Origin: Stramenopiles sp. TOSAG23-6
Taxonomy: Eukaryota
Assembly: GCA_900128565.1 (NCBI GenBank)
Contig: LT635912.1
Span: forward strand, 50,927 to 70,926
DNA length: 20,000 nucleotides
Direction: 5' to 3'
The notes below the pieces were generated by a model. It was not told where the DNA came from and ran no database searches. It was given only the letters and a program-made list of their open reading frames with translations. Positions within the stretch are counted from its first letter, which is position 1, and each line of letters starts with the position of its first letter. The position numbers and the translations under genes were made by a program. Shown piece by piece: positions 1 to 20,000 of the stretch.

Positions 1-2981
1 TACTCATGAGACAACTAGCATCATCGGAATTACCACAGTTGTCCCAGTCCATAAAACAACCATCTTTCTCTCGAAGTCTTTCAGTATTCTGATTCTGATT
101 ATTAAAACTGTCAATACATTTCTGGAGTACTGTAGTTGGAAAATCAGATTCGTGGCCAATACCCATTTCTATCCAAGTCAGTGCTCTTGCGGACCACCTA
201 CTATATGCCCAATATGCGAACTTGCCAGCCTTTGGGACATATCCACCAAAGAGATTAATCAATACTGCAAATATGACAGAAGTTAACGTAGCAAGTGACA
301 AATCAGTTTGAAATGCACAGCCAACTGCGTAACCCATTCCAGATACAGTCCATACAACACAGAGAGCCCATTGTAGATATGAGCTTGTTGGGCCTGCAAC
401 ATCTACAATGAGTGCTACAGGTGCGATAAAACAAACAGCCCCGATACACTGGAGGGGGAAATCAACCAAAACTACTGCCAGAAAATACGCAAGTTTATTT
501 ACACCAGCACTTGCTTCACGCCAAAACACAATCTTCTTTTGACCACAGAATGATACACAAGAGACAGATGCTGCACAGACACCAAGAGCCATTGTCATGA
601 AAAAACCAAATGGGCCCAATTCATTTCGAAGAGGTTCAAAGCATATTTGTGTAAAAATATTCTTTTTGTACAATTTGTTAGGTATGGAATTTCGTACGAA
701 AAAAGAAATCGAAATGGAAGAAAAATAGAAACATACATTTCCATTCAGCACCCGATGGGCAATTTTTCGAATATTCATTGGCACCTCCTCTTGGCTCAAT
801 TAACAGTGGTTCAGATCCAAAGATGATAGCAATAACAAAACCATCAAATACAAATGCAAGTAAGTCAAATCCCAATTGGTATGTGCGAAAAAAACGAATT
901 CTAATATTTTGTACAATAAAGGCTCTCAATTGAACAAAAAAAACAGGAGCTTCTTTCGACGTATCTGACATTGTTTTGTTGTTTTCTGGTGTAAGTTTTG
1001 TATCTGACTTCGTTTCCGTTTTCATTTCCTGAAATGCTTTTGATAATTGGTTAGATGCAAGACGAGATGCATTAATCTGGGATTTCACATTTTTTGTAAT
1101 AGTGCTACTTTTGCTTTGACCACCATCATTTTCAATTCTACCGCATAAAACATCCAACACAAAATCTGCGAAATTGTCATCAGAATCTTTTTGGTACCCC
1201 ATTTTTGCAAAGTGAGCTTCCGCGAGGCTAGCTTGACCTAAATAAACAGTTTTACCACCATATCCAAGTAACATCAATGTATCGATTTGATTGTATATTT
1301 CAAGCCGAGGTTGATGTAGTACACTCACGACAGTAACTCCACCATTTGCAATGGTTTTCAATGCTTTCATTACCCCAACTGCTGTACTCGAATCTAAGCC
1401 ACTCGTTGGTTCATCTAATAAAATAGCTAAAGGATCCATTACCAACTCTAATGCAATATTGACTCTTTTTTTCTGTCCGCCACTAATTCCTCTTCTGTAC
1501 TCATCTCCAATGATGACGCCTGCAACGTCTTGAATGCCCAGAACATTCAGTACAGCTTCGACTCTATCTTTAATACTTTTCTCTGATACTTGTCTTGCAC
1601 TTAAACGCGTTTTGGCAGAATGTGTTATGGCTTCTCGAACTGTGAGTTCTGGATGCATGACATCAGATTGAGGCACAAAACCAATACGTGACTTAAAATC
1701 TGTTAAACATCCTTCTTTTTCATTGATAAATACTGTACCATCAGTATGCTCCAATTTCCCCGCAATGATATTAAGAAAAGTAGATTTCCCCGCTCCACTA
1801 GCACCAAGAATACACATTAAATTACCAGGTTTAATTTCGCCATTCGTCCCAGATAAGCGAAACTTCTGCGATTGTTTTTTTTTGATACAACAACCACAAT
1901 ATTTATATTGAGTTGGAATCTTCAATGCGAGGGAATGAAATTTAATAGATATCGAATCCTTTTTCGTTGTAGAGATTTTTTCGACTTTACTTTCTTGAGT
2001 TTTATTTTCTTGAGTTCCGAGATTTTGCATTTCAACTTGTGGTTGTTGGGAAACTTTACTTTGTCCTTTTCGAAAAAAACATACCAAAAAAAATTGTCCG
2101 CCCACTAAAACAATTACAATAATAAGCAAAAATGGTTCTGAATTTGATTTTGCCCCTTCGGCGCAAATGGATAATTTCCCACATTTTTTTGGAGTTTTTG
2201 ATCCCCTTGGACAATAATAACCTTTAGGACAAATTGTTTTAGTACCTGCATATTTGTCACAATAGTACCCAGACGGACATGCCACAGGATATTGATTTTC
2301 CTCGCAGTGTAAGCCTGGAGCACATGCAGTCAATGTGACGATACATTGAGATAAATCTCCAGCTTCTTGATAGATGTGTCCTGGTTTATGAGACACCCAT
2401 TTATATGGATCCTTACAAGTATTTTGGGTGGTTGCAGAGGCGTTTCCTTCACAACTACCTAAAAAACTTCGAAATTCATGACTGTTCATTGTGGCTTTTG
2501 CTTTTGTGTTTTTTTTTTCTAAATCACAGACAGATAATAATTGCTCGCGAAAGAAAAGTATTAGAAATGTGTCCTTTTCGTGGGCAGAGTTAAAATCAGC
2601 ACCATCTATTGGCCGTGTGCACACAGCTTTTGGCTTCTGACTCATGGCATGATACAGTTCAAGAAGTAGCGTTCGTGAAGCAGTGACATCTTTACACATA
2701 CTGCACTCGTTAGAAAAGTTACTTGAATTATCAGAAACACTCGTATCACCCATTTTTTCAAAGAATATTCTTCCAAAACATGTATTTCGTTGATTTTGGT
2801 TCCCCATTACCCCAATAATATTTTGAACTGCTTCTTTCGTTGGACTAGAGGAAATGTTCAATTTGTTTGTTAGCCAAACTTGAACCTCTGTGAGACAGCT
2901 CGACGTAATAGAAGAATTAAGTTGACTCGCATTCACATTCAATATCACTAAACACAGAAGTAGCATTAAAATATATTCCAT
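1..2981 (-). CDS. ABCG-family half transporter with signal peptide and Cys-rich N-terminal ectodomain (ABCG24/28/ADP1-like); exons 2981-737 and 642-<1; runs off the window
   Basis: Walker A GASGAGKST, GFVPQSD, signature ISGGQKKRV, Walker B LLDEPTSGLD, H-loop VLHQP, CPSGYYC/CPKGYYCP repeats. After removing 643-736 the frame is open to base 1 and encodes a hydrophobic TMD (WK/CFEPLRNELG...VFWREASAGVNKLAYFLA...YSRWSARAL). Confidence 0.93.
643..736 (-). other. Non-canonical intron (94 nt, GTATGT...AAATAT), member of the repeated intron family
   Basis: Junction TGG AAA T|GTATGT...ACAAATAT|GC TTT GAA restores W-K-C-F-E. TACCTAAC at 684-677, 34 nt before the 3' end. The first AG after the motif gives TAA and is out of frame. 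Confidence 0.8.
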
Positions 2982-3260: not shown

Positions 3261-3299
3261 TTCTATCTATTCTGGAATCTTCTATCTATTCTGGAATCT
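3261..3299 (+). repeat. 19-bp exact tandem duplication (TCTATCTATTCTGGAATCT x2) just upstream of the ATG at 3309
   Basis: Direct reading: 3262-3280 equals 3281-3299. Confidence 0.9.
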
Positions 3300-3308
3300 G
3301 GATGAAAA

Positions 3309-5183
3309 ATGGTTCATTTCTTGACTACATTGATATATCTTTTGTATTATCACTGCATACATGCAAATGATGACCAATGTAATGAAGCTATAAAAAAGCA
3401 AAAGATAAACGTGAATAGTTCAGAGTGGAAACTGTCACCAAATCGTGTTGTTATGGACAGTAACTTTAAATGGGGTCGAGTTGTAGTTCCCATCTGGACG
3501 TCAGTATTTTTAGGCACTAATGATTCTCTCCCACACTTGGATAACACTTTACAAATTTTATCCTCATTTGAGAGTGATGAACTTGCGCTTGTTACAGTCG
3601 TAGGTGGTGGCGCTTATCTCCGTATTCTTGAACATATGGAATTTAGTTCTATTCATTTCTTTGACGCAAACGTTAACGAGTTAAGTAAACTTCGACTTGT
3701 TCATGACGATATTATCAAATATGACTATGATACATGGATAGCAAATGGTGGAATGCAGTCTGTAGCTAATAAAATTTCCTCACTGCGGGAAAAATTTTAC
3801 CTGCCAGCCCCACTTCTAACAGCAGGTGTAACCCTGCATCCTGCAACTGACTTTGAGTGGCCGATTCCTGGTCAGAGTAGTTATTATGATCCATTAGGTC
3901 GACGAAATCCACTTTGGTCAATTTTCCCTCCTTTATCTTACCCAGAGTATGCATGGAAACCAACTCGAAAGGGTTATGAGAGAGTACGCAGACAATTGAA
4001 ATATCGTGTGGCAAATGAATTTTATTTATCAGTTCCTTGTGGCATCATTCCACCTAATATTCTTTCAATAGTTTATGTTGATGGAATCAAAATTCCAAAA
4101 TCAACAATACGTGCGGTTTCACGTTCGGGTGATGCTATTGGTTTATGGTCGATGGTTGAAGACCAAAAATTACTCGGTAGGGGAAATAATTCAGATTGGT
4201 CAGATTCCCATTTCTTTTGGGAGCTCGCAGTTCGTTGGAGGATTGAAAGTAGCACTACAGTAATAAATAATACTAGAATCGGTATGGATAATATTGTAAA
4301 TAATGTAATGCATATTTGGGCAATTGAAGATATAAATATGATGGGAACAATCTACGATTGGATGTTTACAAGTAGCATGGAAGCATCGTCATTTGCTTCG
4401 TCTACTGTGACGACTTCAACACCCAATAAAAAGGAGACAGACAAATCTTTCAATGAAATCATTGTTTTCCATATTCTACTTGGTAAAGCAACTACTAAAA
4501 CGAATTGTTCAAAACGCGAAGAATTATTTATGAATGCGTTGATTCGAGCTGTAAAAGAACCACATGTAAGAAATGTTCTAGTTACTGAGCATAACACCTC
4601 TTCAAAACAATTTGATATTTTAACTAATCCATGTGCATTAAATGCAGCTAATATCAGAAAACTTATCAACAAAACATTGTCATTAACACCAGACAACATC
4701 AAAACGAACATAATAGCTACTCGTTTTCTACCTGGTGGTGGTACTCATGATAGAAATGTATTATTTGATATTGCAGTAAATGAAGGAATTCCATCAAAAA
4801 ATGGTAATAAAAAAGAAACTTTCCTTGAAGATAATAATAAATCTATGAGACCAGCAACTATTCAACTTCAGATTGATGAAAACACGAAAAAAAGGCCTAT
4901 TATTTTTCCATATGATGGGTCTGTAAAAGTATTACAATCTCTCGCGGCTGCTGCGTGCATGGATATTCCTCTTACTGATAAATCATGTATGTTTTATTTT
5001 TTTTAATTTCGATTTTTTTTTCGTACGCAATTTTGTACCTAACAAAAATATTGAATGTAAAATATTTTTCAAAATACATGCATAGACCAAATTATGAATG
5101 AAATGAAAAGAATTATAAAAGAAGATAAAAAATCTTCTGCGAGGGCGATTCGCCCTGAAAAAGAGAGCAAGGTGATTCAATAA
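3309..5183 (+). CDS. Hypothetical secreted protein; exons 3309-4986 and 5080-5183
   Basis: 565-aa ORF with a hydrophobic N-terminus (MVHFLTTLIYLLYYHCIHA). It runs into a family-type intron; splicing gives ...DKS/CIDQIMNEMKRIIKE...KVIQ* with TAA at 5181-5183. Confidence 0.75.
4987..5079 (+). other. Non-canonical intron (93 nt, GTATGT...ATACAT), member of the repeated intron family
   Basis: TCA T|GTATGT...AAAATACAT|GC ATA, flanked by a CATG direct repeat. TACCTAAC at 5036-5043. In-frame TAA inside. Boundary inferred from alignment to the other copies because no protein homology was available. Confidence 0.7.
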
Positions 5184-6266: not shown

Positions 6267-8749
6267 ATGAGATTGATGAGACTTTTTATATATCATTTTG
6301 CATTCGTTCACACTGTTGCAGCAGAAGCATCTTTTGTGTTAAAAAGTTATGAATGCGTCGCTGGCTTCGATTGTATGTATCAAAACAGTTGTGCTAATGA
6401 TGAAGGAGTTTCTTGTCCCATTGGCCGGTTCTGTGGCAGACCCAGTTCTTTCCCCAATGGACTTTTTCAATGTGATGGTGACCATAATCAAAGTTGTCCA
6501 GGTAGTGAATTCCCAGATGATAGGTGGAGAACTTCAAAGTGTGCCACGGGTGCATACTGCCCGACGACAGTAACAAATCAAAAATGTGAAGCTGGATACT
6601 TTTGCCCAAGAGGGTCTGTCAAAAGAGTCAAGTGTTCAATAGGTTCAATATGTGGCGAAGCATCACACTTTCCAATTGGATTTTTGCTGTTTGGTTTCGC
6701 AATACTTTTGTTTATTTTTTATATTTTATGCCGTCGCTTTTGTCTCACGACAAAAATTGGTCATACGATTTCAAATGATGGTTGCGAAAACAAAAAAGAA
6801 CTTCCAGTTTCTAAGAAACTGAAAATGCCATTTCCTCTTCAATTCGAATTTGATAATATATGCTGGAACTTTCGAGATAAGCCTATTCTTCGTGGTGTAT
6901 CGGGTTCTGTCAAAGCAGGTGAAATGATTGCAATTATGGGTCCATCAGGAGCAGGTAAAAGTACACTAGTAAATTGTCTAATGTCACGGTATACCCCCAG
7001 TACCGGAACAGTAACAATAAATGGATACAAAGATATTGAATTCTCTAGTATATGTGGAATAACTGGTTATGTCCCACAAGATGATATAATGTTGGCTAAA
7101 TTAACAGTCAGGGAGAATTTAATGCATTCAGCAAATACTCGAATAAATTCTCAAGTAAAAGCAAATTACTCTTCAAAGGCTCGTGTTGATTCTGTACTCA
7201 CCAGTCTAGGTCTAGAACATGTACAACATTGTATAGTTGGAGATACCCGTAAGCGTGGACTAAGCGGTGGTGAAAAAAAACGTGTATCGATTGGTCTTGA
7301 ACTAGTGGCTAGTCCGTCTGCAATTTTTCTTGATGAGCCTACGACAGGGTTAGACTCATCCGCGGCTGAAGTTGTGATTAATCAATTAAAACTCTTTGCT
7401 AATGAAGGACACGCGGTTATAGTAATTTTACACCAACCACGTGCTAGTATATTCAAACAATTCGATAATATCCTTTGCTTAACATCTAGAGGCGAAACAT
7501 TTTACTTTGGAAGTCCTCTTAAAGTTCGTGACTTTTTAAACCAAATACAAAATCCATGTCCATCGGGGAAAAATCCAGCAGATCATTTAATTGACATTGC
7601 AACGAAAAAGGGTAAAGTATCAATGACATCTACCCCAACAAGTATTTCGGATAAATCTAAAACAATCTCAGAGAATACAGTAAAATTTGAAGATCCAAGA
7701 TTAAACATCAAAGGAAAATTAGCGAGTTGGGGAGCCCAGTTTTTATTCTACTGGAAACGTTCCTGTGTACAACAGCTACGAGATTCCATGGCACTGTATC
7801 TTTATTGTGGTCTTGTTTTCCTCATGGTTGCTTCTCTCTCAACTGGTTTTTCACCTTTTATCCAAGAAAATCTGGAGAGTGTTTACAAACCACCCCTCGG
7901 CAAATCATTGAGAGATTATTGTCCACCACACAATAAAGCATGTTCTGGCAGCATTAACGACGATGGATTAATACAAATGATGTTTTTCTACTGTATGTCA
8001 ATTGGATCAATTGGAATGCTTGCTGCATCTCGAACATTTTACAGAAGTGAAATGATAGTAATGAAAAGAGAATCAAATATTGGTCTATCCTCATCTGCTT
8101 GCATCATTGCAAAAGTTTTTGCTGATTTAAATGTAATTATATTACTATCATTGCTCGCATCAGGACTATGGCTTGCCATGGGTTATCCGGGTGGACCTGT
8201 TCGTTGGTTTGTTCTTACTTTTTCATTGTTGTTTACTTGCTACGGATGGGGATATTTTGTTTCACAAATTGTATCCGATGATATGATTATGACAGTATGT
8301 ATGGTGTACGTTTTCATACTAAATTTTGTACCTAAGATTCTTTTCATCCTAGTGTTTCTCTTTTGCTCACATTTTCTAAAAATAATTTTACTTTTCGAAT
8401 GATTCCAGTTGTCATATTCTAATTTTACATTTTTTCTGACGTATAATTTAATTACAGCACTGCTCTTGGCTTATCTGCTTTTAATGGTGTGAATCCAAAA
8501 CTTGTGGATGTTCCTTGGCCGTGGAGAACCATCTGGGGCATGGGATATAGTAGGTGGATTTCCGAAGCCATATTTTCCACCTTTACAATGCATGATAGAA
8601 ACAGTGGCTTACCTGTGCAATTTGCTGCATCGAGATTTGGCTATGATGTCTCCGACAATCAATTTATTCTTGATATTGTAGTTGTAGTGATACAAGGAAC
8701 CTTATTGAGAATATTTACAGGATTTTTGATTGTTAAAAAGAATACATAA
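6267..8749 (+). CDS. Second ABCG-family half transporter with Cys-rich ectodomain; exons 6267-8305 and 8458-8749
   Basis: ATG at 6267 gives a signal peptide (MRLMRLFIYHFAFVHTVAA). CPIGRFC/CEAGYFCP repeats, GPSGAGKST, LSGGEKKRV, FLDEPTTGLD, ILHQP. The TMD is completed by the spliced exon (MV/TALGLSAFNGVNP...YSRWISEA). Confidence 0.93.
8306..8457 (+). other. Canonical GT-AG intron (152 nt) carrying a degenerate copy of the family motif
   Basis: ATG GT|GTACGT...TTCTGAC...TTACAG|C ACT restores the frame. Contains AAATTTTGTACCTAAG at 8321-8336. Confidence 0.85.
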
Positions 8750-8869: not shown

Positions 8870-10106
8870 TCACGCATTTGCTGCTATTTTATCTGCTTCA
8901 CCTACTATTATCGTTGATTCTGTCGATATTGCAAAATCTTCGGCCATATCCAAACTAGAACTTCTTTCTTCTTCTTTTGCTGCTTGTACTGTTGTTTCTG
9001 CTTCTTTCAATTTCAAATTTGCAACTGAAAAAACAAATGTTTCCTCTTCTTTCTTCCTCTGACAACGAAATTTCCAACGGACCTGATTTACATTTGTTTT
9101 ATCTGGATCATTAGATGTCACTTCGTATCCTTCAAATGTTGGTATACCTCCTAACCATTTTTGCTTTTTTGTTTTTGGAAATCCACTTTGAATTACGCTA
9201 TTTCGTGCAATTTCAGATATATCAGTTGTACTAAGGCACCATATCTGTCGAGCTATGGAATATTCTTCTAGTAGAGGTGCATCTGATAAATGAAATATCA
9301 TAGGATCATCCGTGGATAAACTAACATTTAACCCTCGCTTGAAGAATTTATAAAAGGGTTGATCTTCGTATCTCATGAATAGAACATTGTTTGATACTGG
9401 TGAAACTGCGAGCCCAATATTATCTAGATAGTAAAGATATTGCATAACTATATCATTTGCTAATCCAATTCCGTGATTAATTCCATTAGCCAATAAATAA
9501 GTAGTACAAAGATGATGTTTGGAACCACTTTCACCTGCATGTGGACGCAATGAAAAAGTATTCATTCCTTTAGAACGCCTTAATGAATTCAATCGGCTAA
9601 TATTTGCATAAAGGTAATATAATTGATAAGAATATGGAGGATTTTGTTCCGATGTCCAATCTTTTGGAGTTGTAACCTTTCCATCAATTGTTGCAAGAGG
9701 GAGATCAAGTAAGCTTTCATCATCGACAGAGTCAAATCCTGAAACATCTTTTAGAAATTCTGAAAGCTCCGGATATTTTTTTGGTTTCTCAGTTGCATCA
9801 AAAAGAGGTTGAAATATATTATATATAACTTCTTGATATGATGTTACTTTTTTCAATTTGTGAAATATGCGGTAAATGTATTGTGAAAAAATATTTTTAC
9901 TCGAAATATTTTGTTAGGTACAAATTTGGTATAGAAAAAAATTAAATTTAAATTTTGAAAACATATATTCTTGGAATTTGAATAAGCCATCGATTGTGTG
10001 GCTGCTGGACTAGCTTATTATTGAGAGCCCATTTTGCAAGTTTATCCCATGCATCAATGTTATCACCATAAATGGATAAACGATACTCTGCCCACGTCCA
10101 TTGATG
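8870..10106 (-). CDS. AMPD: AMP deaminase, C-terminal half only (upper boundary approximate); exons ~10106-9967 and 9875-8870
   Basis: AEYRLSIYG, WDKLAKW, WLIQIPRIY, GFDSVDDES, NPPYSY, LRPHAGESG, INHGI, SPVSNN and the SLSTDDP signature. No N-terminal half upstream on this strand. Confidence 0.92.
9876..9966 (-). other. Non-canonical intron (91 nt, ATATGT...ATACAT; can be slid to AT-AC)
   Basis: CCA AGA AT|ATATGTTTTC...CACAATACAT|T TAC CGC restores the AMPD motif QIPRIYRIF. TACCTAAC at 9920-9913. No usable in-frame AG nearby. Confidence 0.85.
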
Positions 10107-12565
10107 CAGACATCCGGCGATATTGCTGCAATTGTTTTTCAAATTGATTACTTTGTGTGTGCGTATCATTCAAAGAGTGTGACATATTTATATCAAAATT
10201 ATTTTTCATATATTGCGTCATTTCTTGTATTCCGCCAAGAGAACCACTACGCCCACGTCTTACAGGAGGCGATTTGACAAATTTTGACCCAGATGAAGAT
10301 GCACGAGCTCGTTCAGGCCAAAGTGAGTGCAAATCAGGGTCTGACGGAGTTCTGCTCATGTTAAAACTATTTCTTTGCTGACGAACATTTCTACTATTAT
10401 CTGGTGTTTGCCTCAAATAACCTCTTATTTGTGTAGGTGTTGTTGGTGAACCCAAAAAAGTTGAATTAGGATGTCGTGGGGGTGTTGACCCCAGAGGGGT
10501 TGGCAAATTTGATCCTAGTATCATTATAGGCGATTTTCTTGAGATATTAGTGTTAGGGGACGCATGTCCTATTTGTTGAAATTGCGGCGGCGTATTTATG
10601 GAACTGTTCAAACTTGTTGGCATGCTATTATCTGATGATGTGCTTAGTCTATGTACCCTGTCTGCAGTCATAGGAATACTATTATCTGATGACAAGCTTA
10701 GTCTATGCCTTTCAACGACTTGTCCGACAGTTAACGGTGCATTTGAATGTAATCTTTCTAATGAACTTGCAACACTGTATTGAATAGGACTTGATGATGA
10801 TGCAACCTGCATATTAGGATTCGATCTATTGCTTCCAGGTGATAAAGGGTGACAATTCCGAGGTATAGATAAAGGTAATGCAACAGACATTGGGGAACCA
10901 GCATCATTTTTTACATTGGTATATTGATTATGAGAACCAATACGTGATTGCTGTTGGGGTGACCAATTCTGTGCACTTTGAGATGGATAGGTTCTTTGAT
11001 GTTGAATCATATGAGGCATCATTGGCTGTCGTGGGGAGTAATGTGGACCTTCACTCATTGGAGAAGATATTGAAGGATGTTCCATCGACCGATCATTCTT
11101 ATACATGACTTTCATTTGTCCCATATTTTGACGTCGTGCAGAGTGTTCCATACCAGTAGATGAAGACAATGCACCTTGAGGTCCAGAATATTGTATATAC
11201 TGCTGACGAGAATTCGAATAAATATTATTTGGATTGGGTTGAAATTCAGGTTCAACATATTTTTGTGGTTCAATAGCAATATTATTCTGTTGGCCTCTTT
11301 GCTGTTGATAGTATCTATTCTGTACCATCATAGCAAATCCTGGTCCTAAATGGTCTGGAAGTGAATGTGGTCGGAAATGATCATGTATTTCGGAAAAATA
11401 TTATTTTTAGTAAAAATTTGTTAGGTACAAAATTTGGTACAAAAAACAAATTCGAAATTCAATTTTGAAAACGTACATTTGGTTGACTTGCTCGGTATAA
11501 CTCTGGAGGAGATCTATAAGGAGAGTCTAATCGCAAAGGGTAGCGATACATGAGATTATGATTCCCACTATGTATTACACTCTTAGTCTGTTGTTGTATA
11601 TCTTGGGTATAATGAGTATCATGATAGTGTCTTGCTTGGTTTCGTACTCTTGGGATATTTGAACTCTGTTTTTCTACCTCTTGATTAGGGTTAGGGTTAC
11701 GTTTCTTTCTCACGTCTTGGCCATCAGAAGCATCTTTCCCTTCCGGTCGATCAGCATAATTATTAATAATACAATCAGTGACATTTGGTTGTCCAAGAAT
11801 TGAACCTGAGAGATCAAATCCACAGTCTTTTGCATACATTACGCTAGCTTTTAATTCACCGAACGGTGTTCCAATGGGAGAAAAAAAATATTTAGAAGTT
11901 TCCCGATTTGAGTTAAAGCTCAATGGCAGAGAACCATCATTGCTCACTGCATTTGCGCCAAATTCATAATTTATATGTGTTGTTGACAAATTGGACCGTT
12001 TCGTATTTCGCATCAGACCATATGCAGGTAGAACTCTAACAAAAGCAAATACCGATCGAAGAAATATTGCAATTCGCTTATAAACCTGTCTTAGTTGAGA
12101 GGTCATATCTCCATACTTTTTTAAACTTAAGTCTGCACCACCAGATGGATCAAAGTGTAAACTCCAACGCTCAAGTAATATACGTGACGAAGTTGTGTTA
12201 TCATTGTGATTCTTGGCTTCTACAGAGGGTATTCCGACACCAGAAAAATGACCAGCACAAGCTCCACCCCCGCCCATCCAAAATATGTCACACTCTTTGA
12301 ATGGTAAATATGGATCATGCTTCCATGGTTCTAGCTCTTTGCGCACAAAATCTATGTTTTCTATGTGCAAATTAAATGGCGGCCTCGTCTTCTTCTTTTG
12401 AGTCCTTTGAGGAGACTGAAAACGAACACGAGATTGTAACACAATCTCCGATATTTTGAACAAAGATTCAAGTACAATACGTTCACACTTTCCTCGCTCA
12501 TTCTTTTCCAAAGCATTACCTTGTGCAGATTGCCGGCGTTTAATTGCACTAGAAGGTGCAGACAT
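10063..12565 (-). CDS. ATG13: Autophagy-related protein 13 (HORMA domain plus long disordered S/P/Q-rich tail); exons 12565-11477 and 11382-10063; extreme C-terminus probably chimeric
   Basis: HORMA motifs EIVLQSRV, FNL, LLERWSLHF, VYKRIAIFLRSVFAFVRVLPAY, SPIGTPFGELKASVMY, followed by a low-complexity region. Confidence 0.85.
11383..11476 (-). other. Non-canonical intron (94 nt, GTACGT...ATACAT)
   Basis: CCA AAT|GTACGTTTTC...GAAATACAT|GAT CAT joins the two ATG13 ORFs in frame. TACCTAAC at 11427-11420, 37 nt before the 3' end. Confidence 0.78.
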
Positions 12566-13556: not shown

Positions 13557-13608
13557 CCCAATAGACCCTAGGACCTAAAACCTAAAACCAATAACCTAAA
13601 CCCAATAG
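13557..13608 (+). repeat. Degenerate ~7-nt-period CCTAAA-like array, telomere-like, intergenic
   Basis: CCCAATAGACCCTAGGACCTAAAACCTAAAACCAATAACCTAAACCCAATAG; CCCAATAG occurs at both ends. Confidence 0.55.
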
Positions 13609-13732
13609 TCACCGGTTATACATTTAGAATAAAGTTATTAGATTTGAATAGCAATAATTCATAGTATTCTTTTGTTACATTGAATATATATATATTTCAA
13701 CAAAGCTTTTTTATATTATATATACTTAATAC

Positions 13733-15294: not shown

Positions 15295-18200
15295 ATGGGA
15301 ATGAGTGGTGATTCTGCTAATGTAGAACAGCAACTTAAGGAAGTGAAACTTGCATTTGCGGACTATGACTGGAATACAGTCGGAAAGATCTGCGCAAGAC
15401 GTGAAATCGCACACTTGTCTATTTTTAAGTCATATGCTGCGCGAGTTGCCAGTATCCGTAGAGATTATACACGCGCAGTTGCACTTTGTGATGATATCGC
15501 ACGATCTTCTCCTACATGTACCGATCCAGAAACACTCTCAAATTTGCGACATATCTATAGCTTGAATGGCTTAGATCGGCAAGTCGTTGACCTGTATGAA
15601 AAAGCCTTAACAGCAGCAGCACCATCCTTTTCTTCCCAGAAAATCGATATTGATGCTGAACCTACTCTTGTCGAACGACTTTCTCGAGCTCTTTTTGATG
15701 CATACGGCAATGTTGGTTCGAGCAAAAAACAGCAGGCCATTGCGCTTAAATTATACAAAATGACTCAAAAGAAACAATACATGGTCTGGGCGACGACTTG
15801 TCTATTGCTTCAATGTCCATCTGAAAAATCTAATAGAGGTAGTGAACGTGAAGCTACTCTTAATCTTGCAATATCCATGCTACGCCGCGTACTTGATATC
15901 GATAATGTCTCATCAAGAGGTAATGATGGTGAATCTGTTCGCTTGTATGTTGAAACTTTACTAGAGTTAAAAAAGTTCCAAGACGTTTTGACAGTTTTAG
16001 ACTCTACAATTGTTCAATCAAATTTTAAACAAAAACAAGATGATACAAAAGATGAAGAGTCATCAATTACAAAAGATGACGCAGATGATGGTGCGTTTGC
16101 TGGTGCTTTTACATACCGCGAAAGTCTCCTAATTCGTGCTGACGTTTTATCGAAAATGGAAAGATGGAACGAAGCTGCTGATTCCAATCGCGAATTTCTT
16201 CTTGAAGTTGATGTGAATGACTGGGTTTCGTGCCGTTCCTTTATATTTAATACAAATTCTCTCTATAGTAATGCTTCTACGGAACTAGAGAAATCCACAA
16301 TTGATTCAAATTCTGATAAATTTGTTGAGTTATTACAAGAAAAAGCAAAATCTTTTCCATCTGTCCCGAGAGCTCCTTGTACGTTTTCATCATTTCAATG
16401 TCGATGTTTTTTCATACGAAATTTTGTACCTAACGATTTTTTTTATTTCTAAAAAAAAATATTTTTCACAATACTTTTCTTCTAGAAATTGCGTTAGCAC
16501 ATAGTCGCATTGTAAATCGTACCAAAAACAGCTCATGTGACATGTCTACTTCTATAGAAATGTTATGTCAAGCCTCTGGTGATTTTCTTGATTTAATCAA
16601 AAATTATTGGAAAATATTTGGTAAGAAATTATGCTGTTTTCTGGATGTTCAGCATTTTTTAAATATTTTAACCATTCCAACAGAATGTTCTCGGAATGAA
16701 ATGAAATGTTCTACAGAATTAGCACGAAACATCGATCAAGCTATTGGTCGTATAAAAACTGTTTTGTGTACAATGATAAATTCTTCACAATCAAACCGGA
16801 CAAACCCTAAACCTAATTCATCTTTAAAAGTTTCAAAAGAAAGGCTGAATAATTTACATTCTTACATTACTGCACAGCAAATCTCTCGATTTATTGGTTT
16901 ACATCGGTTAAATGATAACAATCAATTACTTGAAATTGCACGTGATCTCATTATTGAATGGAAAATAACATTAGATTTGAATTCTAAAAAATCTTCCATG
17001 GGAGATACTACTCTTAATAATATATCGAATGAAATTAAGAAATTAGATTTTCAGAAAAAGAAAGAAAACGAAAATCCTAATGATGACCAAAGAGAAGTTC
17101 AACACGGTGATGATTTGCTACTCCTTGCGGCGCATATTTTCATAGAATTATCTATCCGTTACACCTTCGCTGCTCAACAACTGTCAACATCTATCGAAGA
17201 AATGTCGAATAATAAAAGAAAAGGCTGGTCATTTTTAGTCGATGCAATTGTTGCAGCAGAATTGGGACTGAAACATTCCGCATTCAACTTTCAAATGAAG
17301 TTAGTAGTAATAAGAGTGTACAATGTACTGGGTGCATTTTCTTCCGCGATGGCTCGGTTTAAGGAACTCGATATTAAACACATTCAAATTGAAACTTTAT
17401 CATATGTTGCACTTGATAATTCTATAGCCACTGGATTTCATGACAATGCTATCCAGATGTGTGAAAGTATTGAATCATTTCATGGACATAGTTCACGTTG
17501 TATTCCAAAATATACTAGTACTGCATATAAATATGGAAATGTGTGTCAAGTGCGAGAATTCTTCAAGTTAAAAGAGAAATTAAGACGATCTCATCAATTA
17601 GTATCATCTCAAATTGATCTTTTTCATTTAAATATGATGAAACTTCCCAAATATTCTCACCAATGGCTTAAAGAACAATTTATGATGGGACATTTAAAAG
17701 ACATTCCCATGACAGAGCTCGAAAAACTTTTGGAAACAGAAGATAGAAATATTGCAAGTTCCTGGGATGCACCTATTCACGCATTAGCTGGAATTAAAAA
17801 TGCCGAAAACCTTAAAGGGAGTGCTACTCCTCAAATACAAAAGATTGAAGCTGTTGACTTGCGTATACGTTGTTTATATCCTATACTTTTAATGTTAAGT
17901 AGTTCGTTTACCGAAGAAAAACGTCTGAAAGAAAAACTTGTTGAATTTAAACGTTTGGTCAAAACATTACATGAAATTCGGATAATTTCTCCAAATAAAA
18001 CTCTTCATGAAAAGATTATGCAAGGTACATTTCAAATGAAATGTAATTGCTATGAGATAATTGCTGATGCCTTTGATATTGCATTAGATATTTCAAGTTT
18101 AATGGGAACAGAGCTGTCGTCTGATGTGAAGTCAGAATTGCGTAATTCTTTACAACCTAAATTAATATCTATGAGCAAACGTCTCACAAAACTGGCTTCA

Positions 18201-18854
18201 TTTTCAGCGTATTCATTATGTGAAGAAATAGATAGTAATCATGTGGATGAATTATGTACCGTAGATATGTCTACAATTGATTGGGGATTTCGTGCATGGG
18301 ATATTATAAAACATGGGGATTCCGTTCCTCTCTCTGCCTCGAATGATGGAAAAGGTTTACGAGGTTGTTGGATTTTTTTAATGCATTTGTCTACTTGGTT
18401 GACCAAATTGATACCTGAGTGGTACGGCGCATTACAAATTACTGGTTCCAAAGTAAAAGGAAAGAATAAAAGTAAAGGTAAAAATAAGAAAGGTAAAAAA
18501 AACAAAACAAAAAAATCTTCAAAAGGTAATGATGCTCCCATCTCTGCTCTAAAAAACATCACCGCTGTTCTTGATGATATACTTATGGGAATGGCAAAAC
18601 AAGCGAAAGTTGCTCAAGGTAAACTTGCAAAAGGTTTGTCTCCAAAACTTCAACTAGAAGGGTTAGGGTTAGGATCCACACCTATTTCTGTACTAGATAT
18701 AGCTTTGCAAGAATCTTCAGCAATGCTTGAAAAACTTCATCAAGTTAGAATGGAAACTTTGCGGAAAATTTCGTGTGATCATAAGGAAGCACTTTCGAAA
18801 GTGTTGAAAGCTGCGTTAGATGGCAGTGCGTTATTACGAAAAATTCGCAGATGA
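15295..18854 (+). CDS. NAA25: N-terminal acetyltransferase B auxiliary subunit (NAA25/MDM20); exons 15295-16378 and 16477-18854
   Basis: TPR-like N-terminus, KQQAIALKLYK...YMVWA, RAP/FLLEI, FGKKLCCFLDV, SAFNFQMKLVVIRVYNVLG, FKELDIKHIQIETLSY, AYKYGNVCQVREFFKLKEKLRRS. Confidence 0.88.
16379..16476 (+). other. Non-canonical intron (98 nt, GTACGT...ATACTT)
   Basis: GCT CCT T|GTACGT...CACAATACTT|TT CTT gives RAPFLLEIAL, matching the NAA25 RGPxLAxLEL-type helix. CTT direct repeat. The first downstream AG (16484-16485) creates TAA; a later AG (16497) is in frame but would delete the helix. Confidence 0.72.
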
Positions 18855-19019
18855 TTTTAATCATTTTATATAAAAAAAATATTTGTATTTTTTGTATTTT
18901 TAACGCATCCGTTTCGTTTATATCCAATTTAAATTGGTTACCGTTAAAATTTGTATCCTCTTTCATCACCTTGCAAGTTGTAACTAAAGTAGAAAAATAT
19001 TTTACAGTACTCTTAATCA

Positions 19020-19926
19020 ATGAGTTGCTGTCATGGTAGTCTCAGCACAATGATGTGGGATATGACAAAGAAAAAGATTTTGGATGAAAATGGTTCTGCA
19101 AAATTTTTCAAGTTGTCGTTATCCGAAGCTGCTGAAAGCTCAACCGCAGACGCACGAAAGGCGTGTGCAATGATATCTAAAGCACGTGAGCTAAGAGCTA
19201 AATACAGGAATAAATCAGGTGATCTGGGCTTTTCCTGTGATGAAAACTCACCGAGAAGGGGAGTGTTGAGTGTTGATAGCGGGGCGTATGAGCTTGTAAA
19301 TATCGCAGATCAAGTAATAAAAGATGACCTTCCAACAATGGGTGACTTTGTCAGTGACTATCGGGAACTTATATCAATCAGAAACAGTGGTGCGTGCAAA
19401 ACTCTTTGCCATAAGCGATTAACACTTTTAGAAACGACATTTGAAATACACAAATCTATGAACGGTGATCGAGAAATGGCACTTGAACGAGCTTCAAAAA
19501 CAGATTTTTATGGGATACATAAGGTGGACACACATGTTCATGCTGCAGCTGCAGTTGCAGCTCCAGATATTTTGTCTTTTATTAAAAAAAAAGTCAAAAA
19601 TTGTGGAGATGATGTGGTGGACGGCGAAAGGACACTAAAAGAAGTATATGATTCAGTTGGGGTTCCTCTCGACGAGCTTACTGTTGATGCAATTGACATA
19701 GCTGCTGATGCAACACTTTTCAATCGTTTTGATCACTTCAATGCCAAATGTATGTTTTCATCAGGAATTTCAAATTTTAATGATTTTCATTTCTTAGTTA
19801 TTACGTACAGTATACCTAACAAATTTCAAATATTAAATATTATTTCACAAAAAATACAATCCTTGTGGAAATGCATCACTTCGACGTTTATTTCTCAAAA
19901 CTGATAATGACGTGAATGGTACTTAT
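19020..19926 (+). CDS. AMPD: AMP deaminase, N-terminal half; exons 19020-19749 and 19856-19926, continuing past the window
   Basis: ELRAKY, KTLCHKRLTLLE, DFYGIHKVDTHVH (Zn-binding His pair), TLKEVY, FNRFDHFNAK/YNPCG...LRRLFLKTDN. Confidence 0.92.
19750..19855 (+). other. Non-canonical intron (106 nt, GTATGT...AAAAAT)
   Basis: GCC AAA T|GTATGT...CACAAAAAAT|AC AAT CCT restores the conserved FNAKYNPCG. TACCTAAC at 19813-19820. No AG between that motif and the next donor at 19927. Confidence 0.9.
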
Positions 19927-20000
19927 GTATGTTGTATTTTTTTTTAATTTCGAATTTATTTTTCATACGAAATTTTGTACCTAACGATTTTTTTTTGAAA
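19927..20000 (+). other. Family-type intron, truncated by the window end
   Basis: ACT TAT|GTATGT donor; TACCTAAC at 19978-19985; 37 nt identical to the NAA25 intron. Confidence 0.85.

Follow-up and report, generated by a model that had tools for sequence, protein, structure and literature searches.

Bursts of intron gain are at present best explained by introners, and the surveys that detect these elements start from annotated GY-AG introns. In Dothideomycetes, introner-like elements are about 100 nucleotides (nt) long, carry their own splice signals, lie in genes in sense orientation, decay to introns in which only the signals are left, have GT-AG ends and have a predicted stable fold. According to the sections of two papers that deal with them, introners occur in Micromonas, Aureococcus, Chrysochromulina, Symbiodinium and others (PMC9860276, PMC12130899). 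In one architecture described in the former, the element has its own 5′ splice site and the 3′ site is supplied by target duplication; terminal inverted repeats (TIRs) and autonomous partners are not obligatory in every described family, and fungal introners without a target-site duplication (TSD) or TIR are mentioned (PMC9860276). In this study, we analyzed a stretch of 20,000 nt from Stramenopiles sp. TOSAG23-6 (GenBank assembly GCA_900128565.1, contig LT635912.1, positions 50,927 to 70,926, forward strand; hereafter the window, whose own numbering is used below). A sequence-only reading had noticed here a 37-nt motif shared by introns of unrelated genes and offered two explanations, an extended branch site paired with a variant RNA or the footprint of recent spread from one element. 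We put at roughly 70% the probability that the motif is the middle part of an intron family of ~95 nt that spread by copying, in the manner of introners, and whose members end without AG.

Compared with introners as those sections present them, the family shows the same near-identical short introns in unrelated genes, an unchanged mRNA length and a higher AT content than that of exons. It differs in that the families described there, surveyed from annotated introns, are GY-AG (or AT-AC), whereas the introns here end in AT or TT, in that the putative duplication is only 2 nt long, and in the lack of a clear TIR. Length, self-supplied signals, sense orientation and decay (as in the copies I1 and D below) are shared with the Dothideomycete elements, but in place of their GT-AG ends and predicted stable fold we find no AG and no conserved fold. 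The parts of PMC7789003 that treat Amoebophrya describe a marine protist with repeated introns, non-GT-AG borders and direct repeats of 3–5 nt over the exon-intron borders; those elements have inverted repeats of 8–20 nt, a hairpin joining their ends and no fixed terminal letters, whereas the introns here have a yeast-like 5′ site and branch box, form no hairpin and lie in an intron-poor genome. Stable pairing of the intron ends, which defines the hairpin introns of euglenids and Amoebophrya, was not found in our copies. Fritillaria borealis, as presented in part of PMC13326754, removes introns with non-AG 3′ ends by a major-type spliceosome, a property linked to diverged U2AF paralogues; unlike in that animal lineage, where 5′ ends are also non-GT, GT is kept in seven of the eight copies here. 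The literature that we searched, whose supplements may hold intron statistics, contained no description of this family, of the TACCTAAC/UACCUAAC box or of non-AG introns in MAST-3 or its relatives, and MAST single-cell papers, in the portions available, touch on introns only in their methods or as a share of the genome.

Eight introns of one family

The exact 37-mer TTTTTCATACGAAATTTTGTACCTAACGATTTTTTTT occurs at two sites, 16408–16444 and 19959–19995, both on the plus strand, and in none of 200 shuffled sequences. The 37-nt identity reported between the introns of the NAA25 and AMP deaminase (AMPD) genes is thus an exact repeat with the coordinates originally given. Within the motif lies an 8-mer box, TACCTAAC, which has seven exact occurrences in the window against 0.34 expected, a number reached in no shuffle; an eighth copy carries the variant box TACCTAAG. 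Reading through the window and scanning it for the pattern placed every TACCTAAC match inside a short AT-rich stretch that interrupts an open reading frame (ORF). The eight introns, each named by a letter, are as follows.

643..736, minus strand: intron A, in an ABC transporter gene; 94 nt; GTATGT...AAATAT; box at 677–684
4987..5079, plus strand: intron B, in an unnamed gene; 93 nt when the family geometry is applied; GTATGT...ATACAT; box at 5036–5043; 3′ block at 5062–5077
8306..8457, plus strand: intron D, in a second ABC transporter gene; 152 nt; GT-AG; variant box at 8329–8336
9876..9966, minus strand: intron E1, in an ORF for the C-terminal part of AMP deaminase; 91 nt; ATATGT...ATACAT; box at 9913–9920
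11383..11476, minus strand: intron E2, in the ATG13 gene (Pfam ATG13); 94 nt; GTACGT...ATACAT; box at 11420–11427
16379..16476, plus strand: intron H, in the NAA25 gene; 98 nt; GTACGT...ATACTT; 37-mer at 16408–16444; box at 16427–16434; 3′ block at 16459–16474
19750..19855, plus strand: intron I1, in the AMP deaminase gene; 106 nt; GTATGT...AAAAAAT; the most diverged copy; box at 19813–19820
19927..20000, plus strand: intron I2, in the AMP deaminase gene; cut by the window end; 37-mer at 19959–19995; box at 19978–19985

These introns are hosted by six gene loci (seven ORFs typed by Pfam or PDB). Intron A lies in a gene with ABC_tran and ABC2_membrane_7 domains (Pfam), and the gene with I1 and I2, which starts at 19017 on the plus strand, matches the AMP deaminase structures PDB 2a3l and 26xc. 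The host of H is of the NAA25/MDM20 type; its best relatives are an unnamed EukProt protein and then oomycete proteins, and among its relatives, which carry PF09797, one is named N-alpha-acetyltransferase 25. All eight introns lie on the sense strand of their host gene (one-sided chance 1/256), and their GC content is 0.16–0.26 compared with 0.36 for the window.

The eight copies align end to end despite their unrelated host genes. The family consists of seven copies of 91–106 nt, counting the truncated I2, and the rearranged 152-nt copy D; of the six complete copies in that size range, five measure 91–98 nt. The shared layout begins with GTAYGTTTTCA, an A/T spacer with AATTTCGA and a T-run, continues with C(R)TAC(S)AAATTTTG, the box TACCTAAC and a second spacer, and closes with ATATTTTT(C)ACAATAC. 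Close variants of the motif's left part, and a second motif AATATTTTT(T)CACAA before the 3′ end, were found as the sequence-only reading described them. When the 5′ and 3′ blocks were used as queries, the window yielded no copies beyond these eight.

Removal without a 3′ AG

The removed segment extends from GTAYGT to 10 nt past the T-run of ATATTTTT, that is, 2 nt past ...ATAC, and this single fixed geometry gives an open frame in all six complete copies. Two clean joints came from two polyA RNA runs, each skipping 94 nt with a microhomology of 3 nt that leaves the cut ambiguous to that extent. For intron A, a contig of 355 nt (run X4) joins 641 to 736, and for E2 a contig of 262 nt (run X2) joins 11381 to 11476; both restore the frame. 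Three of the four copies unseen in RNA (E1, I1 and H) are backed by gapless homology. In E1, one flanking exon aligns to the Arabidopsis AMP deaminase (PDB 2a3l) as far as residue 411 and the other from 413 onward, the split codon supplies residue 412 and the frame is restored. In I1, the end of exon 1 corresponds to K328 of 2a3l (K292 of 26xc) and the start of exon 2 to N330 (N294 of 26xc), and the conserved tyrosine between them, Y329 of 2a3l, is encoded by the split codon TAC. In H, the alignment runs without a gap over the joint, RAP|FLLEIALA against RAPYLLEIALA of P0005, the best NAA25 relative. For intron B, the reading frame is the sole support. A protein search with AMPD exon 1 returned one match, with 42% identity, and no transcript-derived protein of the organism that spans I1.

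In the GT register, the introns end in AT in A, E2, E1 and I1, in TT in H, and in AT in B if the family geometry holds; the register of the ends is open by 2–4 nt. Five introns (A, E2, E1, I1 and H) are thus demonstrably without an AG end. The AG-less 3′ ends, a point that the sequence-only reading had missed, are the notable result of this analysis. No AG-ended reading keeps the frame of H, I1, A or E2. An AG between box and joint is left unused in A and E1, the AG 9 nt downstream of the joint of H leads to a stop codon, and I1 has no AG between box and joint or in the next 12 nt. A YAG 3′ end was found only in D. Three other registers, TTTTTC|AC, CACAA|TAC and |ATAC, are in frame for some copies, but both the joints seen in RNA and the homology of AMPD and NAA25 exclude them.

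Intron D is a rearranged copy, by its appearance a deletion derivative: the 5′ site directly abuts the core (CATACTAAATTTTGTACCTAAG, GTACGTTTTCATACTAAATTTTGTACCTAAG), and the 3′ half shows no relation to the family. About 120 nt of non-family sequence follow the core, with CTGAC 17 nt before a normal AG, and only the reading GTACGT..TTACAG restores the frame. Since D has a normal AG, AG ends are apparently also used by the same organism.

The 5′ end of E1 (9956–9966, minus strand) reads ATATGT and not GTAYGT, within an intact and well-conserved ORF. Either an A at the first intron position is tolerated alongside T at the last, or the gene fragment is not expressed.

Conserved blocks and a possible splicing mechanism

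Mean pairwise identity among the copies, with gaps counted as mismatches, is highest in the TACCTAAC box (0.97), the GTAYGT 5′ site (0.87) and the 3′ block from ATATTTTTCACAATAC to the end (0.81). It is 0.69 for the 5 nt that follow the 5′ site, 0.54 for the left spacer, 0.49 for the right spacer and 0.66 for the 14 nt at the left of the motif, or 0.76 when I1 and D are left out. The only change seen in TACCTAAC is the C to G in the box of D. Copy I1 keeps the three blocks but has no recognizable left part of the motif. When the supposed constraint on the long motif was checked in this way, the left 14 nt outside TACCTAAC were found to decay nearly like the spacers. Judging from the alignment, only the 8-mer within the 37 nt looks functional and under lasting constraint. 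Because the motif decays outside the 8-mer, the 37-nt identity of H and I2 would mark two young copies of one subfamily, reflecting recent common descent of the NAA25 and AMPD introns. RNAalifold found no conserved pairs on six copies, and single folds were weak (-3.3 to -12.4 kcal/mol) and inconsistent. A stem AATTTCG/CGAAATT between spacer and core, picked out by eye, was rejected since its changes in E2 and B are uncompensated and RNAalifold gives no pairs, as was a hairpin of the palindromic GTACGAAATTTTGTAC, which is not conserved in A, E1 and I1.

The 5′ hexamer is GTATGT or GTACGT in seven of the eight copies, a GT site compatible with U1 and U6, and ATATGT in E1. The description of TACCTAAC as neither the U2 nor the U12 branch consensus is literally correct, as TACTAAC and TCCTTAAC are absent from all copies. 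The box contains a CTAAC core, however, which is the ordinary U2-type branch core, and lies 35–43 nt before the 3′ joint; from its sequence, TACCTAAC is probably the branch site. Of the U12-type boxes, the 5′ box RTATCCTT has two matches in the window, neither at an intron, and the branch box TCCTTAAC has none. The element could thus supply its own 5′ splice site, GTAYGT, as in intron-poor yeasts, and its own branch site, with the CTAAC core of TACCTAAC pairing with U2 and the A bulged. A short T-rich tract and the CACAATAC block may then position the second cut whatever the terminal letters, so that the 3′ site would be chosen by position and not by AG. The terminal dinucleotide would be a copy of the target, arising from a 2-nt TSD or from a preference of the insertion site. 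A broader proposal is that in this stramenopile lineage, possibly MAST-3-like, most introns are young copies of one element with a positional 3′ site and an invariant non-standard branch box, UACCUAAC; we advance it tentatively, giving it somewhat less than an even chance.

Border repeats

In all six complete copies, the last two exon letters before the intron equal the last two letters of the intron (AT in five, TT in one), and the match is longer in B, H and I1, at 3–4 nt. Such a border repeat fits a short TSD, where splicing would take out the element and one copy of the repeat. Pairing between exon end and intron end was considered and ruled out, as the TT/TT of H is a direct repeat and not a complement.

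Occurrence outside the window

Two EukProt coding sequences (CDS), P0003 and P0004, whose labels begin GSMAST32..., have VCFIFF.F.FFVRNFVPNKF as their last residues, a read-through translation of the element. We read the label as that of a MAST-3 assembly. In P0004, ISYLTNIFEKKNIFFHNT, from the 3′ half of the element, lies between the APE and CDLWSIG motifs of a kinase domain. Both gene models are evidently broken by introns of this type, and other published models from the same assembly are likely to be cut short or padded at each place where the intron occurs.

The RNA runs that match parts of the window are seawater metatranscriptomes, with shares of sampled words of 0.06–0.19. In three of four runs, the summed depth was 227–1959 in four of six motif-bearing bins and at most 5 in motif-free bins. 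The bins with A and E1 had a summed depth of 3–20 in the same three runs, in which 368–424 of 573–703 contigs fit two places. This pattern suggests many copies, although the depths sum over all organisms and give no copy number.

Evaluation of the copying model and its alternatives

The suggestion of spread from one element is supported: the end-to-end alignment, the common length, the sense orientation, the unrelated host genes and the read-through CDS elsewhere all speak for it. Several observations weigh against a family that spread by copying and ends without AG. The comparison covers only eight DNA copies, and because no empty site, no intergenic or antisense copy and no autonomous partner was found, we infer mobility from the similarity of the copies. 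No ORF in the window with a Pfam family match is transposase-like. GTAT/ATAC is the best TIR, and none is at least 6 nt long. In the border repeat, AT occurs in five of six copies and only H (TT/TT) is specific to its locus; because AT dominates, a fixed splice signal together with a site preference is indistinguishable from duplication. TACCTAAC is far from the joint (35–43 nt), and the branch could lie in the 3′ block rather than in the box. The RNA joints are assembled contigs from mixed communities, in which element-free alleles are a possible source, and their 3-nt ambiguity leaves the register open, so that AT..AC in E2 is equally allowed. B is an ambiguous copy, since the frame is also kept by a GT..AG intron whose end lies 6 nt downstream, at 5085, and one contig from an RNA library covers 8240–8481, including D, unspliced. 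The protein search, with the read-through translation of copy B as query, yielded two read-through proteins among six candidates, at weak E-values (0.19 and 6.7). Scans for the element pattern gave chance matches only (0/28 viral, 0/37 metagenome and 0/4 prokaryote-genome loci): none of the viral loci has the flanking blocks, none of the metagenome loci has the left motif or the 3′ block, and the four prokaryote-genome loci are all bacterial. These collections hold few protist contigs, and absence is not implied.

It is quite improbable, in our judgment, that the whole motif of 22–37 nt is kept by full-length pairing with a variant U2/U12-like small nuclear RNA (snRNA) or a guide RNA. Such pairing would agree with a box unlike TACTAAC and TCCTTAAC, with a left part somewhat better kept than the spacers (0.66 against 0.49–0.54), and with a core identical at 37 of 37 positions in H and I2 though their 5′ thirds visibly differ. 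Yet splicing is still required of I1, where the left part is gone, and of A and E1, where it is changed, and there is no compensatory or conserved pairing. The Rfam scan of the window gave no match at E-values up to 1 and revealed no snRNA there, and the conserved region of U2 beside GUAGUA is, we presume, not complementary to the sequence upstream of the box. The idea of extended pairing is thus left unsupported by the motif decay and by RNAalifold. A register shifted 2 nt upstream, AT|GTAYGT...ATAC|, would make these AT-AC-type introns, removed by a diverged minor-type or an adapted major spliceosome; the branch would then lie within the 3′ block (TTTTTCACAA), at a distance of ~9 nt from the cut, leaving another role to TACCTAAC. 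The joints permit this register, with the 3 nt fitting both sides, and it gives AT-AC in E2, B and E1, AT-AT in A, AT-AA in I1 and TT-AC in H. Kept blocks near both ends, loose terminal letters and the lack of AG follow U12-type logic, and such introns likewise have long conserved 5′ and internal boxes and tolerate non-AG ends. RTATGTTTT is also like RTATCCTTT except at +5 and +6. On the other hand, RTATCCTT and TCCTTAAC are missing from all eight copies, the distance of TACCTAAC from the joint exceeds the 10–20 nt or so of U12-type introns, GTAYGT, a textbook major-type 5′ site, would sit 2 nt inside the intron, H begins with TT, and D, which shares the 5′ block, is a GT-AG intron. We therefore regard the AT-AC register as unlikely.

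Convergence in place of descent, where an intron-poor genome imposes the same strong signals on unrelated introns, could explain why the three best-kept blocks are those expected as splice signals and why they occur in all eight introns of the window, the rearranged D included. It does not account for spacers that align too (AATTTCGA, T-runs), for lengths of 91–98 nt in five of six copies or for 37 nt identical in two genes, and the read-through peptides of the other assembly match the 5′ third as well (VCFIFF); we consider it very unlikely. Little credence at all is due to the possibility that no RNA is removed and that the contigs derive from element-free DNA, through insertions missing from other alleles or through ciliate-like somatic excision. 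The joints do consist of the element and one copy of the short repeat, as at an empty transposon site, and the spliced contigs differ from the window at one or two other letters. But all eight copies are in sense orientation and each starts with a 5′ splice site, whereas DNA excision is indifferent to the strand of the gene, and six gene loci in 20 kb would be broken. The internal eliminated sequences of ciliates, with TA borders, no strand preference and usually a variant code, are also a poor fit to genes that are read by the standard genetic code and stop codons and to borders of AT|GT and AT|N. Spread of one intron family by copying remains the reading that we prefer.

Other features of the window

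The C-terminal half of AMP deaminase (8870–10133, minus strand; 2a3l residues 368–688), which hosts E1, begins abruptly near 10133 and comes without the N-terminal half of the enzyme. It lies in another frame than, and overlaps, the end of a long low-complexity ORF (10063–11400, minus strand) located after the ATG13 domain. Possible origins are a truncated paralogue, fusion via an unrecognized intron and an assembly chimera. In both ABC transporter genes (2040–2470, minus strand; 6330–6660, plus strand), a signal-like segment and a cysteine-rich, extracellular-looking region precede the ATPase domain, an N-terminal addition that is unusual for this type of transporter. Just upstream of the start of an unnamed gene at 3306 lies a perfect tandem duplication (3261–3298; two units of the 19-nt TTCTATCTATTCTGGAATC). 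The short spacer between the DOT1-like and ribosomal L4 genes holds degenerate telomere-like repeats at 13561–13610 (CCTAAA, ACCTAAAA and CCCTAGG units).

Implications

When unrelated introns share a long identical motif, this points mainly to the youth of the copies, and functional constraint seems to act on only 8 of the 37 nt. A family without AG ends is invisible to surveys based on GY-AG introns and breaks gene models, as with the two EukProt CDS that stop inside the element. If removal independent of AG is confirmed, these introns would lend themselves, as a compact natural system, to the study of how the site of the second splicing step is found, would show how few demands the spliceosome can make on a newly inserted element, and would allow better gene prediction for abundant, uncultured marine grazers. 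If the positional choice of the 3′ site is true, any 2-nt duplication, AT or TT, could end an intron, and almost any place of insertion could turn the element into a clean intron. It would also be a natural, genome-wide case of AG-independent choice of the second-step site in a free-living protist.

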